Positions 10,838-63,865 of a stretch of DNA of 64,000 bases are shown in pieces; position 1 is the stretch's first letter; every line of letters starts with the position of its first letter. The translations under genes were made by a program, and so were the position numbers. The stretch lies in NCBI GenBank assembly GCA_000092065.1, contig CP000582.1; one strand, 5' to 3'. The DNA is from Ostreococcus lucimarinus. Taxonomy: Eukaryota. A model generated the notes under the pieces. It saw only the letters and a program-made list of their open reading frames with translations. It was not told where the DNA came from and made no database searches.

Positions 10838-12980
10838 AAATGCGTGCGTGTGCGTACGCGCGGGGCTCGTTCGCGCGGAATAGGCGCGCGCGGTGACGAC
10901 GGAGCGTCGAGAACTGTGGAACGAGGCGCTACGGCGACGAGATAAAGCGCGAGCGGCGGCTGAGAAGCGAGGGATGACTTTCGCGCGTTGTGTGCGTTAC
11001 AACGAACGACGAGCGATGGTGGCCTAGGTGTGAGGAAAAAGTAACGTCGTGTGGTCAGCGTCTCGAATGCGAGCAAACGCGAGATTGGATTTAGTCCGTA
11101 ATTTAGTGACGTTCGCGCCGTAAGGATGCGCGCTCGTCGTGGAGTCATTGGACCACAAACCGGTTGTCTGGCCGGCGTCCCGCGAGCGGGACAAGATTGA
11201 TGTGCGCGACGGAAGTAAAAAGATCATCTCCACCGTTAAGTAAGGAGCGCCTTAGGCAAAGTCGCGGGAGGTTTTGTCGAAAAAGCGTCCTCGGTTGGAC
11301 TCGGACGTTTGGCCGTCGGAACGATTCGGCGGCGGCGGTGCGGTGTACAAAGCCTCGGGAAGTTTGAAGCAATGTAATTAGTGTTCATTCACGACGTCTT
11401 AAGAAACGAGTTGTTCGTCATCGACTTCGTACGCCACACCTCGCACACCCGGTATCGTTCGTTCAATCAAACATTCGTCCGCAGGAAGAAAATCTCGCGA
11501 CGAACCAAAGCTCATTACTTCTTAGAGGTTGATTAAGCCTCACGGTGAAATCAGCATCGGTTTTTGGAATCACGGCAAAGCGTTCATCGCGAGCGAGAAA
11601 ACGTAAGCAATCGTCGAGAGATGTCGCGCTGACGATTGAGCAGGCGACTGTGGATAGCAGCCACCTACTCACCCATGTCAACGCTGTCGGCTGTACCTTA
11701 GAACGACGGGAGAGCAGCACATGCGGCCGAAGCCTGATCAGCCCTCTGCTTTGTCAAGGAAACGAGGACGAGCAAACCGAATCGATAGAACGCGCCGTGA
11801 CACGTACCTGGCGTTCACGACCCTCAATGGTAGTTTTTGCCATGCCTGCGAATGAAAGAAAAGAGGCGTAAAGGTGAGTCTTGCGCGCGTCGTCGAACGA
11901 ATGTGGTGGAACTACGGAGGAATTTCGACGACTTGTAAACGCCAAAGCTCCACGGAGAGCCCATCCCCTTTTAATCTCGCCTTCGCTCAAAACTGACACG
12001 CGGAATTGAATCGCGGGGGTTCTAATTCCTCGATTCTCTGCGGGCAGCTCTGCAGCGAAGGCTTTCGCCGACGAAAAATACGTCGCGTCGTTCGTCGTCC
12101 CGTCCCCGAGCGAGCACCCGTTCACGACTCCCACGGCGCGATCGCCTCAGTCGAAAGATGGTGAATTATGTTTTGATTCTTCACGGTGTTCAGCCAGTAT
12201 GGACACGTTTACATCCCAGACGTCGGCCGCTTCGATCCCGGGCGTTGCTCTCGCGCGAAGGCCGCCGACGACGCCGACGACGACGCGCCGAATGTGAAAT
12301 CGAATAAGGGCGCGCGTCGAGTCGATTCCCCCGACGCGCGCGTGACAATGATCGACCTCTCTATTCACTCTCGGGCGCGTTAGGTTTCCCTTCGGACGCG
12401 CGGCATGGCGGTTATCAGCCGCCCCGCGACCCGTACACACAAACGCCCGCGCGCGCGAGAAAAACAACCGAAACAACCAACACCAACAATCCCTCTCCAC
12501 CGCGTCTCGGCCGATATGCTCAATTGACGTCACGACGACGCGCGCGGTTTTATTCCGGGTAACTAATCCGGCCGCGCGCGCGTCTCAGTAGCCAAGCGTA
12601 AAAGTTTTCGTCATCGACGTTCGGGCGATTGATGTTCGCGTGGCGTGATTCTTCGCGTCGAGGTCTCGCGCGTCGTCGTCGACGCGCGTCGCGTCGCCGT
12701 CGCGCGCGTCGCGTTCGCGCGCGTCGTCGCGCGCATCGCGTCGTCGTCGCGCGCACCTCGCGTCGCGTCTCGCGCGTCGTCGCGCGCGCGAAGTGCGGCG
12801 CGCGCGCGCGCCGGCGGCGGCCCAATAAACCACGCACAATACGACACCACGGGCGATTTTCGCTCGAAAATGCCGCGCGCGATAAATCGAGGGTTTTGCG
12901 CGAGGTGTCGCGCCCCGGCGAGGCGGCGATCGCGCGTCGTCGATCCGCCTTTTAGCGACGCGCGACCGTCCGTCGACACC

Positions 12981-56551: not shown

Positions 56552-58948
56552 TCATCTAAATCTACGCACGAGCGCTAAACTCAACGCGCGCGCGCAAAAC
56601 GTTTCGGCGTCGACGGGCGAATCCTCGGCGAGCGCTTGCTCGAACAATGGTGCGCTCGGCGACGACATGTTCGGTACGGTGTCGACATCGATCACGATCA
56701 TCTCACCGTTGTCTAAATTTGCAAACGCATTGACTTTCGCGTACCCTTCGACTTGTAACGCGTCGCCCACGCGTCGAGCGCGTTCGCGCACGAGCCCGAC
56801 GACGCGTTCGGACAAGACTAATTTCGATTTGTCGATCGCCGATCGACCGTCGCGCGCGCGCACGCTCGGCGTGAACGCGTGTAATTTCCCGGGTTTGTCT
56901 CCGAAGACGACGATCTCGATCTCGATCCATCGTTTCGATCCGTCGTCTGGGTCGAGGACGATTTCGCCGTCGCCGCGAATGGAAACCTCCGCGGCGTCGA
57001 AGAATGGCTCGAACACGTACCCGCGCGCGGCGAGATTCGTGCCCTCGGGAAATTGCCCGCTCGCCATCGCCGCCGCGATGGACTCCGCGTACGCGAGCAT
57101 GTCGTTGTCGTTCATCAATCGCCGCACGCCACCGAAGGACGACTTGGTCACCGGTTTCACGATTACGCCGCGCGCCGTCGCGCTCGCGCCGCCGAGCGAC
57201 CCGACGACGTCCAACCAAAGACGCTTGGCCGATTCCGCGCGCGCGCGACCGCCCCACCCGCTCTCTTCCGTCGCCTTACTCACTAACGTCGCCGTCGGGA
57301 CGAATCGCTTATTCAAACACCCCACCCCTACGTCTCGCATGTTCCCCAACGCCTTGCTCGTCGCCGCCTTGTCCGCGCACACGCGACTAGCGAGCGGACC
57401 GCATCCGGTGTACGCCGCGCCCGAGGACACGCACAGTTGTTGTAAACTCCCATCGGGTTCACCCACGACGCCGGCGTTGAACACGATGGCGCCCTCGGAG
57501 GCGGCGAGCGAGAGCAACGCGCCCAAACGCGAGACGCGCGGCGTCGCGTCGAACGCGAGCGCCGCGTCGTCGCGCGGCGGCGAAATCCATAAATACTTTT
57601 CTAATTCCGCGCGCACGCGCCGAGCGGTGGCGAAGCGCCCGAGGTCAGGCATGCGCGGCGGAACGTCCGCGGACGACCACTGCGCGGGATTCACCGCGAA
57701 CGCGTACGGTAGCCGCCACGCCGGGGCGTCGACGAGCCCGTTTGAGTTCGCCGCGGGCGGCATCAAGAGCACGGGCGTGACGTCAATCGTCGGGATGTTT
57801 CGAAGCGTCAAGTATAAGTTACGCCCGGCGTAGCACGAACTCAGGCGATCGCCGCCCGACGCGGCGCCGCCGAAGAGAACGTACACGCGCATCGACGCCG
57901 AACTCGTCGAAGCGGGCGCGGGCGCGGGCGCGGCGACGATTTTCCTCGTCGACGCCTCGCGGCTCGTCGCGTTCTTCACCAAGTGTTCGATCACGGACTC
58001 CATGGACAGACCCACGGCCGCGGCGTGCACGAACATCTTCGACCACGCCCTCGCGGTTCCCGAGACCGGCGAATCGGAAAGCTCGACGCGCACGAAGGAG
58101 GTCGCCGGCGCCGAGGTCGAAGTCGCCGCCTCGTCTTCGTCTTCGTCTTCGTCTTCGTCGGCGTCGTCTTCATCTTCCTCGACGCCGTCGTACGCCACCG
58201 CGCCTTCATCACTCGCCGCGCAACTCACCAACCGCCCGCCTCGAACGTCGAAATCGCGCGACCCCGCGGCGTCCGCGAACGCGGCTTCCGCGCGCGCGCG
58301 AATCGCCGCCGCCACGAGACGCGGGTACCGCGTCGTCGATTCCACGTCCAACGCCACGCACGGCCGCTTCCGCGACCGCGTCGTCGACAGCGTCGTGACG
58401 TAAAAATCAAACCCCGCCGCGCCCTCGTCGCCGTCGCCGTCGTCGAAATCGCGCGAAGTCGCCCTCGCCGCCGCCCGCGCGCGTCCCGCGCGCGCGTCCC
58501 CCGTCGTCGCCAGCGCGCAATCCGCCCACGCCCCGTCGTCGCCGCGCGCGACGACGACCGCCTCGCACCGCGCCCCGACGCGCGCGTTCACGCACGCCGC
58601 CATCGTCGTCGCGTGCGCGAGCGCGTCCGTCCCCGCGCGCGAATCGCCGTCGCTCGGAAACACCGCGATCGTTTTCCGCCCGTCCGACGTCGTCGCCGCG
58701 CACCGCGCGCGTCGTCGCGCGAACGCGCGCGGTGCGCGCGAATCGCCGTCGCTCGGAAACACCGCGATCGTTTTCCGCCCGTCCGACGTCGTCGCCGCGC
58801 ACCGCGCGCGTCGTCGCGCGCCGCGCGTTCGTCCGCTTTGGTGCGGCGCCCGCGCCGGCGCGCGCGCGAGCCGCATCGACGCGCGCGACGCGATGTGCGT
58901 CGTCGTCGAAAAAGTGCACTTTTTCGCCCGTCCCGAATGGATTCGCAT
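56552..58948 (-). CDS. ddl: D-alanine--D-alanine ligase homolog (ATP-grasp), plant DDL-like; start uncertain
   Basis: Ddl-type N-domain MRVYVLFGGAASGGDRLSSCYAGRNLYL and C-terminal ATP-grasp end EGYAKVNAFANLDNGEMIVIDVDTVPNMS, with a second partial Ddl-like module upstream. Possible ATG at 58948 or 58603. Contains a 99-bp internal tandem duplication. Confidence 0.6.
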   Translation of the reverse strand: MRIHSGRAKKCTFSTTTHIASRASMRLARAPARAPHQSGRTRGARRRARCAATTSDGRKTIAVFPSDGDSRAPRAFARRRARCAATTSDGRKTIAVFPSDGDSRAGTDALAHATTMAACVNARVGARCEAVVVARGDDGAWADCALATTGDARAGRARAAARATSRDFDDGDGDEGAAGFDFYVTTLSTTRSRKRPCVALDVESTTRYPRLVAAAIRARAEAAFADAAGSRDFDVRGGRLVSCAASDEGAVAYDGVEEDEDDADEDEDEDEDEAATSTSAPATSFVRVELSDSPVSGTARAWSKMFVHAAAVGLSMESVIEHLVKNATSREASTRKIVAAPAPAPASTSSASMRVYVLFGGAASGGDRLSSCYAGRNLYLTLRNIPTIDVTPVLLMPPAANSNGLVDAPAWRLPYAFAVNPAQWSSADVPPRMPDLGRFATARRVRAELEKYLWISPPRDDAALAFDATPRVSRLGALLSLAASEGAIVFNAGVVGEPDGSLQQLCVSSGAAYTGCGPLASRVCADKAATSKALGNMRDVGVGCLNKRFVPTATLVSKATEESGWGGRARAESAKRLWLDVVGSLGGASATARGVIVKPVTKSSFGGVRRLMNDNDMLAYAESIAAAMASGQFPEGTNLAARGYVFEPFFDAAEVSIRGDGEIVLDPDDGSKRWIEIEIVVFGDKPGKLHAFTPSVRARDGRSAIDKSKLVLSERVVGLVRERARRVGDALQVEGYAKVNAFANLDNGEMIVIDVDTVPNMSSPSAPLFEQALAEDSPVDAETFCARALSLALVRRFR
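58637..58834. repeat. 99-bp tandem duplication (x2) inside the 5' part of the ddl-like ORF
   Basis: aatcgccgtcgctcggaaacaccgcgatcgttttccgcccgtccgacgtcgtcgccgcgcaccgcgcgcgtcgtcgcgcg repeated, encoding RARCAATTSDGRKTIAVFPSDGDSRA twice. Confidence 0.8.
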
Positions 58949-59984
58949 TCACAGACGCGCGCGCAGTCGAGATTCCGGATTCGGCGCGCGCGCGAACGAA
59001 CGCGACGGAGGCGTGCGGCGTGAGCGTGAGCGTGAGCGGGACCGTGAGCGTGAGCGGGACGTGATGAATGAAGGGCGCGTGTGGTGCGCCTGCAGAAATT
59101 CGTGACGACGCGTGCGCGACCGTCACGGGGTATGGAATTTAGTTTTCAACCAGCAATATTCCAAGCTCAGTTAAGACTTCACAGCTTTGGATATAACCCC
59201 ATGCGCAAAGATGCGACGCGGGACGCGCGGGACGCGCGGGTGATGGGACGCGTGGACGCGATGGCGATTTCGAGGTTATGGGTCAGGGCGTGCGATGGGC
59301 GTCGCCGCGCGCGGCGCGCGGTCGCGCGCGACGAAAGACGCGTCGGTCGGCGCGAGACGACGACGACGTCGTGCGTCGCGCGTCGTCGTCGTCGTCGTCT
59401 CGCGTCGTCGTCGTCGTCGTCGCGCGCGTCGTCGTCGCGGGAAAACGCGGCGACCGACCGAACGACACACTCGCGCGCGGCGCCGACGCGCGCGACGAAG
59501 GTGGTGATTTTTTACCACGGGTAGAATAAATTGGTTGAATCTCCTTGAATGGAATATAAAAAGGGTTGTATGTGGTAAAAGGCAACAGACAAGCACCTCG
59601 TTCTTATACTCCGGAGCGTTCGAGGGACGACGCCGCGCGCGGCGATCGGGTGCGCGCGCGACGGGGCCGGGGCGATTTCGAGGTTACGGGCGCGAAACAC
59701 GGCGCGCGCGACGGCGCGCCTCTCGTGCGCCGACCGATGCGTCGCGCGCGCGCGAACGGTCGCGCGCGGTGCGTCGACGCGCGACGCGCGCGCGACGCGA
59801 CGCGCGCGCGCGATACCGTCGAGCGCGCGTCGATGGATCGCGCGCGCCGTCGACGTCGACGCGCGCGCGCGTCGACGACGCGCGCGCGGCGCGTCGGCGT
59901 CGGCGTCGGCGCGACCCGTAACCCGCAAACGCGCGCGGCGACGTCGCGAATGCGTCTGGGGGGGGCGCGCGCGACTTCGCGCGC

Positions 59985-60150
59985 ATACTTACCTGCGCCG
60001 AACTCTATCTGATCATGAAGGGGTAGAGTTGCGCGAATCCGTGGCGCCTTGCACTTCGCGCACACGTATTCGCGTCGTTCGTCGCCTAACGGGGCGAACG
60101 GGGCGACAATTTATTCCAGGGTGAGACCGGCGTTCGCGCTACTCGCCATC
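59985..60150 (+). ncRNA. U1: U1 small nuclear RNA gene
   Basis: 5' end ATACTTACCTG (pairs with a CAG|GTAAGTAT 5' splice site). Stem-loop I AACTCTATC / TGATCATGAAGG / GGTAGAGTT, whose loop matches the U1-70K site GAUCA(C/U)GAAGG. TTGCAC U1A-type loop. AATTTATTCC Sm-like site. 3' hairpin GGCGTTCGCGCTACTCGCC containing CGUUCGCGCU identical to human SL4. Length about 165 nt. Confidence 0.7.
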
Positions 60151-60229
60151 GCGAACGTCGTCGGCGCCGCGCGCGAGTGTGATTGTACGGGCGTGTGCGT
60201 GATTACAGATGATTACAGACGCGTCGCGC

Positions 60230-60303
60230 CTATCGTCGAGGCGCCGGGATTCTCGCGCCGCCGCGCGCGCGACCGCCGCGCGCGCGACCGCCGCGACCTC
60301 CAT

Positions 60304-60335
<32 letters not shown>

Positions 60336-63300
60336 AAGCCTGCGAAACTGCGAGCGAAACTCGAGGACTCGATGAACGCGGCGTCGGCGTCGCTCAGCAC
60401 GCGCGCGATGGCGTCCACGGCGCCTCGCATATCCGCCGGTAGCGCGTCTTTCGGTCGCTCGACGCGCATGGCGAACGCTTTGTGCAAACGTAAGCGCAAT
60501 ACCGTGATCTGCGCCACCGCGCGCAAGGGCACGCGAAATCTCAACCAATTGTCCACGACCAACAACGCCGACGGCGGACCGTCTCTCGCGCGCGCCTCGC
60601 CGGTTTCGGGATCGATTTGCGGCACGTCTGGTTTCACCGTGAGCGTGGAGCACACGAACACGATCGCCGCGGCGGCGACCAACGTGCACTCGCGCACTTG
60701 CACCGCGTGAGGGCCTCGAATGAGTTCGTCGAAGCACGCCAAGGTGGCAATTTTTTCACCCGATTCGTTGAGCTCGCCGAGCGCGCTCACGTCGAGTTTG
60801 CCGTTGACGCTAAACGCGTGCACGCGCACGCGCTCGCCGCGAAGCGTTGCCAACGTCGGCGCTTTGCACTTTGGTAAAAATCGTCCCACCAAAGGGTACA
60901 TGCCCACGGCGAGCACCGCGCGCACAAGCGCGCCGGATGACGAGTTTGCGCTCGCGCTTCGCAAATCTGAAATGATGCCGCGCTGAATCAACGCCGTGAT
61001 TAATTGCTGTCGCATGCCCTTGATCATGTGCAGCGTCGACGGCGACAAAGAATTCGCGTTCAAAAAGTACCTTTCATTTTGACGCCCATCGCGCTGAACT
61101 TGCTCCCACGCCATGTACGCCTTGGTCACCGCCAAGTGATCGCTCCCGCCGCCGGCTTCGTTGGAAAACGCCGCGCGACTGGCGTCGCCCGATTTTCGAC
61201 CGTCGGCGGAGATGATGAAGGGCGGACGATACGCCGCAGCGCACGCGACGGTGAGAATCGGATCGAGAACGCCAAACAGAGCGGCGTACAAGATCATCTT
61301 CCCCACGCGCGGGTGCAACGGAAGCTCGCCGAGATGGCGGCCGAGTCGCGTGAGGCGCTCCTCCTCCGTCAAAGCGCCGATGTCCTTGAGCAATTGCACC
61401 GCATTGTCCGTCGCTTGCGCCACAGGGGGCTCGACCGCGCGCGCGAGAAACCCAGCCGTGCTTCCCGGCCCATCGTCCACGACGCCCGCGCCGCTTTCGG
61501 CCAACACGCGCACCTGCAAGCACAGCTCCTCGAGCGGCGACCGCTGCATCTCGGGCAACTGGTACTGCGCGAACGAGTCGTACCGTGAGGTGGAGTACAC
61601 GCGATAGCACTCGCCGGGACGCACGCGACCGGCGCGACCGCGTCGCTGTTTCGCACTCGCTTGCGAGATCCAAGCCGCCTGGAGCGTAGAGACCGCAGAG
61701 TACGCGTCGTAACTCTTTTCCTTCAACCGCCCGCTGTCGATGACGAAGACGACGTCGTCAATCGTCACCGCCGTCTCCGCGATGTTGGTGGAGAGGACGA
61801 TTTTGCGCAACCCTTTAGGTGGACGTTGGAAGACTTTTCGTTGATCCGCCGGGGCGACCATGGAGTGCAAAGGTAGGACGCTCGCCGAGTGACAGACGTT
61901 GTAATCCGCCGTCAACGAGTCGCGAAGTTTGGAGATTTCGTCCCAGCCGGGCAAAAAGACTAAAATCGCGCCCTCGGATCCTTCGTCGATCGCGCGCTCT
62001 TTCATGATCCAAACGATCAAATTGTGGATTAAGTCCACGTCCACCTCGTCTGGATCCACGGAGAGCTGGTAATCGCTCAATAGAAGCGCCGACTGCTCGT
62101 GACTTCCCGCGTCTTCGTTTTCGTCGTCCACGCTTCGCAACGCGTCCGCGAGCTCGACGTGTCCAAACTTATCCGCCCAATCCGCGGCGTTGCTCCCGTC
62201 GGTGCTTCGCATCGCGGGCGACGCTCCTAAACCTAAAAGCTGCGACACTTCCATCTGTCTTCCCTTACCCGCCGCCGCCATGAGCGCGGTGGCGCCCGTG
62301 GAGTGCGCGACGTTTACGTGCGACAACCCGCTCGCAGAATCTGTCTCGCGCGCGCACTGCATGAGCCAATCGAACGACTCGTCGGTGTCCTCTAAAAATG
62401 CTCGCATGATTGCCTCGCGCATGACGTCCACGCTCGCGCCCGAAGTGGGTGCGCGCACTCTCGGTTCGCCGCCGCCGCCTCCGCTCGCCTTCTTCGACGT
62501 GTGATGCACGCCGCCCCATCCGATCATGGGCAAGATATCTTCCAGGTGATACTCATTCACCGGATGCGTATAACCTGGCACTGAAATCACCGGACACCCA
62601 CCAAAGTATTCGCTAAACAAATCTTCGCGCATCGTCGCCGACATCAGCACGAGCTTTAGGTGCGGATGCTTCGGAATCACGCCCTTCAAAATGATGGTTA
62701 GGAAATCCGCAAACAAATCTCGCTCGTGCAGCTCGTCGATGATGATATGCGTCAATGACTCGCACAGCTTATCCGACGCCTCGCTCGTGAGTCGTCGCAA
62801 CAGCACGCCGGACGTGCAAAACAACAACGAACAATCCGCCGAGACCCGGCTTTCCAATCGAATCTGGTAACCGACCGTGCTCTGCCCGATGCTCTCCCCG
62901 CGCTCGTTCGCGATGCGCTCGGAAACCGTCATCGCGCTAATCCTTCGCGGTTGCGTGCACACGATCGACGCCCCGCGCCCGTTCGCCCACGCATCGTCCA
63001 AGACGTACTGCGGCACCTGCGTCGTCTTCCCGCAACCCGTCGACCCGGCGACGAGCACGACTTGATTCGCCCGTACCGCGTTCAATATCGCATCCTTAAA
63101 CTCCCGCACCGGTAACTGTTCGCGTTTCGTCTGTATCGCCGCCAACGACGCATCGCTCGCGATCTTCGCCCGCAAGCGCGCCGCTCGCGCGTTCGTCGCC
63201 TCTTCGCCCTCGCGTCGACCTCGCATCTCCAACGCCGAGTTCCCATACCCTCGCTTCTTCCCCTTCCCTCCCGCGTCCGCCACCGCCGTTTCCCACGCCG

Positions 63301-63727
63301 CGTCCATCGTTCCGCTCACGCTCGCTCGGATCTCTTCCTCGCTCTGCGGCGCTCGCTCAAAGTATTGTTCCATCGCCGCCGTCGCCCGGCGTCCGACGCC
63401 TAAATCAAACAAATCCTCCGCATCCTCCGGCACGTACGCGTCCGCCTTCGTCACGTGCACCCTGCGCTCCGCGCCCTTCCCGTACGACTTGCTCTTCAGC
63501 CCGATCTTCTTGCACTCGGCGTGGACGACGGCGCGGAAGTGATTATCGACGTCGGACGGGAAGATGAGTTCCGTCTCGCTCGCGTCGCGTCGAAACGCGT
63601 CCAGGGCGTCGGTGATGTGAATGCGCGCGAGCTCGCCCACGGGGCGCACGAACGTTCGCGAGGCGCCTCGACCGGCGGCGCCGGGAGGGGCGCGACCGCG
63701 GCCTCGACCGCGGCCTCGACCGGACAT
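60230..63727 (-). CDS. DEAH-box RNA helicase with N-terminal R3H domain and ankyrin-repeat insertion (YTHDC2/DHX36-like architecture), RGG-rich C-terminus
   Basis: R3H (LIFPSDVDNHFRAVVHAECKKIGLKSKSYGKG); Walker A VLVAGSTGCGKTTQ; IIDELHERD; ANK repeats (GATALMAAAGKGRQMEVSQLLGLGASPAMRSTDGSNAADWA) between helicase lobes; HA2/OB region; C-terminal FGGGRGGGGRGDGGRGGRARGG. ATG at 63727; RGRGRG N-terminus. Confidence 0.8.
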
Positions 63728-63810
63728 TCGATGCGATGTCACGGCGAGGCGCAATGTGAGGTTTGTCGAATCTGTCTGAACGCGTCGGTTTCTTGCGTTG
63801 CAATGGCGAC

Positions 63811-63865
63811 TATATCGTATATCGTGTATATCGTGTATCGTGTATATCGTGTATATCGTGTGCAT
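63811..63865. repeat. Microsatellite-like (gtatatcgt)n / (gtatcgt) array in helicase 5' region
   Basis: tatatcgtatatcgtgtatatcgtgtatcgtgtatatcgtgtatatcgtgtgcatcg. Confidence 0.7.

Follow-up and report, generated by a model that had tools for sequence, protein, structure and literature searches.

The locus raises a question of identity and of independence: whether a short interval next to a helicase gene encodes a functional U1 spliceosomal snRNA with a promoter of its own, and what the remaining sequence of this intergenic kilobase contains. The window, that is, the whole 64-kb stretch of DNA analyzed here (62% G+C), was scanned in full against Rfam at gathering thresholds. The scan returns a full-length match to RF00003 (U1, model positions 1-166) at 86.2 bits, above the gathering score of 69.5 (E = 5.6e-20), and it identifies genes for U5 and U4 directly to the left on the opposite strand (Table 1). 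The U1 call made in an earlier sequence-only reading is thereby upheld, Rfam threshold included; the same scan also detects the two neighbors that it had missed. Positions 59985-60147 are a U1 gene of a real but ordinary, canonical kind, of the sort that a standard Rfam scan detects. Beyond this identification, it is very likely that the gene specifies a functional U1 of the Ostreococcus (O. lucimarinus-type) lineage and is one of three close-packed, independently promoted spliceosomal snRNA genes within ∼1.1 kb, each with its own CCCRTAA promoter element (USE).

Table 1. Features of the snRNA cluster and the adjoining helicase gene, in window coordinates.
Feature	Position	Strand	Remarks
U4 spliceosomal snRNA gene	59076-59212	-	RF00015, 88.3 bits (gathering score 46)
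U4 USE region, CCCATAACCTCGAAATCGCC	59263-59282	-	core CCCATAA at -70; first 20-mer copy
Candidate 3'-end formation element, U5 copy of GTCGGCGCCGCGCGCGAGTGTG	59466-59487	-	starts at +15 of U5
U5 spliceosomal snRNA gene	59501-59618	-	RF00020, 48.7 bits (gathering score 40)
U5 USE region, CCCGTAACCTCGAAATCGCC	59671-59690	-	core CCCGTAA at -72; second 20-mer copy
U1 USE, CCCGTAA	59915-59921	+	-70 of U1; extended similarity to the U4/U5 elements to ∼59934, CCCGTAACCCGCAAACGCGC
U1 spliceosomal snRNA gene	59985-60147	+	full-length RF00003 match, 163 nt by Rfam boundaries
U1 5' end, ATACTTACCTG	59985-59995	+	predicted to pair with 5' splice sites; aligned to the 5' splice-site recognition columns
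U1 SL1 loop, TGATCATGAAGG	60010-60021	+	stem GAACTCTATC / GGTAGAGTT
U1 SL2 loop, TTGCAC (UUGCAC)	60049-60054	+	U1A site
U1 Sm site, AATTTATTCC	60108-60117	+	Sm site columns in the Rfam alignment
U1 SL4, CGTTCGCGCT	60131-60140	+	
Candidate 3'-end formation element, GTCGGCGCCGCGCGCGAGTGTG	60160-60181	+	+14 of U1; 22-mer identical to the copy after U5; putative function
R3H + DEAH/HA2 helicase ORF	60230-63865	-	stop codon 60230-60232; converges on U1

Sequence analysis of the U1 gene reveals the complete set of defining motifs, each at or within a few bases of the place where the sequence-only reading had listed it. The 5' end AUACUUACCUG is present without mismatch at its expected position, and positions 2-11 of the RNA are unchanged among 10 relatives. 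The U1-70K site GAUCANGAAG is preserved as GAUCAUGAAG (60011-60020), aligned to the loop columns of SL1, as is the U1A site UUGCAC, contained in CUUGCACUUCG (60048-60058) and aligned to the loop columns of SL2. Between the junction and SL4 lies the AAUUUNUGG-like Sm site, AAUUUAUUC (60108-60116), a variant of the consensus AAUUUGUGG that is shared by all 10 relatives, among them the expressed O. tauri U1. The minor-spliceosome counterpart, U11, was considered and ruled out, since U1 prevailed in the Rfam clan competition and the U1-specific ACUUACCUG is found at the 5' end. Two departures from the usual pattern occur in sister lineages (among loci L005, L014-L019, L021 and L024): the U1 of several of them starts with GTACTTACCTG, with G rather than A at +1, and some have the SL1 loop GAUCAUCGAGG, unlike the usual GAUCAYGAAG.

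Structurally, the U1 gene was compared in an alignment of 10 sequences from at least five lineages (the window, related loci and lineages, and O. tauri). RNAalifold recovers the whole canonical architecture from this alignment, namely a four-way junction formed by helix H, SL1, SL2 and SL3, followed by SL4. Double compensatory changes are seen at 19 of the 50 pairs, and almost no pair is broken. The nearest characterized counterpart is the O. tauri U1 (PMC7671301, Supplementary File 2), which has the same length (163 nt) and the same junction and SL4, and with which the window gene shares 83% identity over 169 aligned positions. This divergence is unevenly distributed: the 3' third, including the Sm site AATTTATTCC and SL4, is nearly identical, whereas divergence with compensatory substitutions marks the stems of SL1, SL2 and helix H, and the SL1 loop carries U in the window (GAUCAUGAAG) and C in O. 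tauri (GAUCACGAAG). Annotations of Ostreococcus snRNAs exist, and in O. tauri these RNAs show distinct read profiles; the O. tauri U1 in particular is listed at 163 nt as a size marker for northern blots, is detected there by a specific probe and has a read profile of its own over the annotated gene (PMC7671301). By comparison with that annotated RNA, the mature 3' end of the window U1 may extend up to ∼7 nt past the Rfam boundary.

The same kind of evidence extends to the two neighbors. The U5 score exceeds its Rfam threshold only modestly (48.7 against 40 bits); the alignment of five sequences, including the O. tauri U5, contains compensatory changes at 11 of 25 pairs and an invariant loop, GCCTTTTACC / GCCUUUUACC. 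In U4, 10 of 33 pairs are compensatory across seven seq­uences. The annotated O. tauri U4 terminates in GGCCTTC, and by the same comparison the 3' end of the window U4 probably lies a few nucleotides past the Rfam boundary, within the conserved CCTTC. Because compensatory pairing is kept across relatives, U1, U4 and U5 are, as judged from covariation, functional genes rather than decayed copies.

Genomic neighborhood analysis of related loci supports the same conclusion for U1. The U1/U4 pair, mostly together with U5, adjoins the orthologous helicase in the loci whose helicase is 79-85% identical to that of the window (L005 and L006). A scan of metagenomes with a 27-nt pattern from the 3' half of U1, which is independent of the promoter, retrieved 12 contigs from several lineages; 10 of these 12 carry U1 with a divergent U4, and the other two end first. 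As far as these 12 contigs reach, no second genomic context for U1 is seen. The window itself probably comes from O. lucimarinus or a very close relative: in a related locus of the same lineage (L002), one neighbor protein is identical to UniRef100_A0A7R9T1Z0 of Ostreococcus sp. 'lucimarinus', and another falls in a cluster at ≥90% with XP_001416079.1 of O. lucimarinus CCE9901. U1 pseudogenes are common in many eukaryotes, and the possibility that the window holds a pseudogene or an inactive duplicate instead of the expressed copy has to be weighed. It is very improbable, given that the structure is maintained by compensatory changes across lineages, that the USE is conserved at a fixed distance, that synteny beside the same helicase is conserved, and that all 12 metagenome contigs share the gene context wherever their reach allows.

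The layout of the cluster is as follows: U4 and U5 stand in tandem on the minus strand, and U1 on the plus strand is divergent from U5, all within ∼1.1 kb. Read from the helicase, the order in the window lineage is helicase, U1 (reverse), U5, U4; in the lineages of L005 and L006 it is helicase, U5, U1 (reverse), U4. The position of U5 is thus a small lineage-specific rearrangement (window 59076-60147 against L005:13625-14386 and L006:7392-8348). Clustered snRNA genes are known from other eukaryotes, for example as tandem or linked arrays in metazoans. The likeness to these arrays is that neighboring snRNA genes are each driven by a separate promoter; the difference is that single copies of three snRNAs are packed here into ∼1.1 kb of an extremely compact genome, rather than many copies of a single species. 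A literature search found nothing specific on the organization of U1 and U4 genes in Ostreococcus, and the O. tauri T2T preprint (2026) does not mention snRNA gene organization.

The three genes share one promoter signature. CCCRTAA occurs at only three sites in the 64 kb, counting both strands, and all three lie in sense orientation at -70 or -72 of U1, U4 and U5; the longer CCCRTAACC likewise occurs three times, against 0.26 expected by chance. Across all related loci with enough upstream sequence, which were picked independently of the promoter, CCCRTAA is found at -70 to -72 of U1, -70 to -73 of U4 and -72 to -75 of U5, and the U4 copy reads CCCATAA in every related locus. The flanks of the element have diverged beyond recognition between lineages, and the position of the motif is kept. 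CCCRTAA at a fixed distance is thus, at the level of sequence, a clean phylogenetic footprint. This specificity of position and orientation (-70 to -75) could be used to filter Mamiellophyceae assemblies and metagenomes for other type-3 genes, such as those of U2, U3, U6, MRP and telomerase RNA.

Two features that the sequence-only reading had listed upstream of U1, a repeated 20-mer and an AT-rich island at about 59550, belong to the other genes. The 20-mer, CCCRTAACCTCGAAATCGCC in the minus-strand reading, does occur in exactly two copies (0.02 expected), and it does lie upstream of other snRNA genes within the window, as that reading had proposed to check: its two copies start at -70 of U4 and at -72 of U5. 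What does not hold is the implied assignment to U1, as the copies are the reverse complement of the U4 and U5 USE regions. Similarly, the island TATAAAAAGGG is present (59555-59565) and belongs to the long stem of the U5 RNA. On the plus strand, these features do stand 300-720 nt upstream of U1, which is what would be expected if they were distal enhancer or promoter elements of that gene. Such a role is nonetheless highly unlikely: each 20-mer is the reverse complement of a motif at -70/-72 of a minus-strand snRNA gene, the island is internal to the U5 RNA, U1 has a core copy of its own at -70, and in L005 and L006, where U5 is found on the opposite flank of U1, the U1 gene retains no USE but its own.

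Land-plant U-snRNA genes have a USE, RTCCCACATCG, at -70, a TATA box at about -30 (32-36 bp downstream of the USE), and a 3' box, CAN3-10AGTNNAA. The window promoters resemble this type in having a USE at about -70 with a CCCA/CCCR core and in that each gene forms its own unit; they differ from it in the sequence of the element (CCCRTAACC) and in the absence of TATA. No TATA motif is found between -45 and -15 in any of the 13 genes examined, in every lineage, and in the window genes this segment contains 13-23% A+T. The sequence-only reading had reported no canonical plant USE or TATA at -70/-30. This is accurate for the land-plant elements, but the -70 position is not empty, as CCCGTAA occupies it. 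Its suggestion that algal snRNA promoter elements may differ is right and had already been answered: the O. lucimarinus USE consensus, derived from snRNA promoters, is CCCRTAA (Fajkus et al. 2021, PMC8287931, Table 1), with TATA-less promoters. The window agrees with that published promoter in its identical core, in which R is represented by A as well as G, and in the lack of TATA. To this the present loci add precise spacing (-70 to -75), a similarity that extends over ∼20 nt within the window lineage (CCCRTAACCYSSAAAYCGCS), and the occurrence of the element in at least five Ostreococcus-like lineages. The USE itself is thus already described, and nothing here differs substantively from the published element.

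The polymerase follows less directly. Type-3 promoters are able to recruit either polymerase, which leaves room for Pol III or mixed transcription of U1, U4 and U5 from the USE. Against this, Pol II is known to transcribe U1, U4 and U5 in all systems studied so far. T-rich runs occur inside the U4 and U5 RNAs, neither of which closes with a T tract, and no T4+ terminator directly follows U1. In green algae, type-3 promoters with a TATA box are assigned to Pol III and TATA-less ones to Pol II (PMC8287931). The window promoters conform to the published description of green-algal type-3 promoters, with a sense CCCRTAA upstream and no TATA from -45 to -15, and transcription by Pol III, or by a mixed system, is very improbable. 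We infer Pol II as the polymerase, an assignment that rests on the published comparative rule.

The gene on the other side of U1 encodes a helicase with the Pfam domains R3H, DEAD, Helicase_C, HA2 and OB_NTP_bind. The window ORF has 1211 aa, against 1165 aa in a shorter gene model of the helicase; by homology search it is 100% identical to a protein (P0001) present on many marine-metagenome contigs, including Tara samples. The distance of about 80 nt between U1 and the helicase stop codon in the sequence-only reading is exact to within 2 nt (82 nt). That reading had left open whether U1 is an independent Pol II unit or is embedded in the helicase 3' UTR. Since U1 and the helicase gene are convergent and on opposite strands, U1 is not a sense part of that UTR, and the covariation and the conserved USE favor the independent unit. 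The notion that U1 is produced from the helicase transcript or regulates it, as a 3' UTR-embedded or antisense RNA, draws on this 82-nt proximity and is extremely unlikely, since the helicase transcript could carry only the antisense of U1, a conserved promoter element belongs to the U1 gene itself, U5 lies between helicase and U1 in L005 and L006 so that adjacency is not conserved, and the helicase of more distant relatives has no snRNA neighbor at all. In these relatives (L008-L012, GC 46-69%), the helicase orthologs are 53-54% identical and the flanks examined contain no snRNA gene; the linkage of helicase and snRNA genes is therefore limited to Ostreococcus-like lineages. Just 3' of the helicase stop, at 60200-60219, TGATTACAGA occurs twice in tandem, which on the helicase strand reads TGTAA twice. 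TGTAA resembles the chlorophyte poly(A) signal UGUAA, and if it is used, the helicase mRNA would end before U1.

Other protein-coding assignments around the cluster are less secure. The statement that no ORF explains the U1 region needs qualification: in this GC-rich DNA it is overlapped by mechanical ORFs longer than 100 aa, and nothing supports them as genes. The 'ddl-like' gene that had been placed on the far side of the cluster is not borne out. The ORF in question (56552-58948, minus strand, 798 aa) has no significant Pfam domain; its only relevant match is to Dala_Dala_lig_C (E = 0.056) at 13.4 bits, below the cut-off of 24, and its orthologs in related loci are also without Pfam annotation.

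Downstream of the genes, the plant-type 3' box CAN3-10AGTNNAA is absent within 100 nt of all 13 genes examined. Instead of the land-plant box, the window has a conserved GGCGC-containing element at about +14 of both U1 and U5. A related T[TC]GGCGCYSC (TTAGCGCTCC in L006) is found in five lineages at +14/+15 of U1, and it follows U5 at +15 to +39 (loci L005, L006, L016-L019, L021 and L024); no GGCGC-containing element is found after U4. In the lineages in which U1 and U5 are convergent, the intervening DNA holds the two copies as an inverted repeat. A loose form of the motif has 19 matches in the window and low information in GC-rich DNA, and because it is so common there, only the position of the element is informative. 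It is possible, though doubtful, that T[TC]GGCGCYSC is an undescribed 3'-end processing signal of Mamiellophyceae snRNAs that replaces the plant and metazoan 3' box, with the inverted repeat serving both convergent genes and each gene having kept its copy after U5 moved.

Taken with these elements, the expression of U1 can be outlined by analogy. SNAPc would bind the CCCRTAA USE and, as at other type-3 snRNA promoters, recruit RNA polymerase II; transcription would start at the A of AUACUUACCUG, and the RNA would be capped. The transcript is predicted to fold into the four-way junction with SL1, SL2 and SL3, then the Sm site, then SL4. The Sm ring would assemble on AAUUUAUUC, U1-70K and U1A would bind the loops of SL1 and SL2, respectively, and the 5' end would pair with 5' splice sites. 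More speculatively, the 3' end might be formed through the conserved element ∼14 nt downstream. Expression from 59985-60147 is thus presumed from related systems, as are its cap and both ends of the transcript.

The significance of the locus lies mainly in annotation. The three snRNA genes and three USEs correct the annotation of the intergenic kilobase and leave nothing in it unexplained. Beyond this, little follows: U1 is a universal spliceosomal RNA, and the snRNAs and USE of the lineage are already published. The present analysis adds the two neighboring snRNA genes, gives the 20-mer and the AT-rich island new assignments, and locates the USE exactly.

The spacers between the snRNA genes have a character of their own. 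At 59283-59500 and 59700-59915, they have 75-82% G+C and contain (GAC)n/(GTC)n and CGCG palindromes. Two matches to mir-598 (59346-59412 and 58098-58177) were rejected as artefacts, at 36 and 30 bits against a gathering score of 69; the first falls in the (GAC)n/(GTC)n palindromic low-complexity spacer. Assemblies tend to break in spacers of 77-82% G+C, where scaffold N gaps and contig ends occur, and in one related locus an N run (L001:13853-13952) separates the U1 USE from the expected place of U5. U4 is missing from the O. tauri V2 assembly (PMC7671301), an absence that may be linked to assembly breaks in G+C-rich spacers.

Far from the cluster, at 12139-12225 on the minus strand, the window contains a match to the Rfam C/D-box snoRNA family Z196/R39/R59 that stays below the gathering score (42.7 against 55 bits). 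The segment ends in a CTGA D box preceded by ATTCACCATCTTTCG, which looks complementary to a conserved segment of LSU rRNA. On these sequence features, it is probably a genuine C/D snoRNA.
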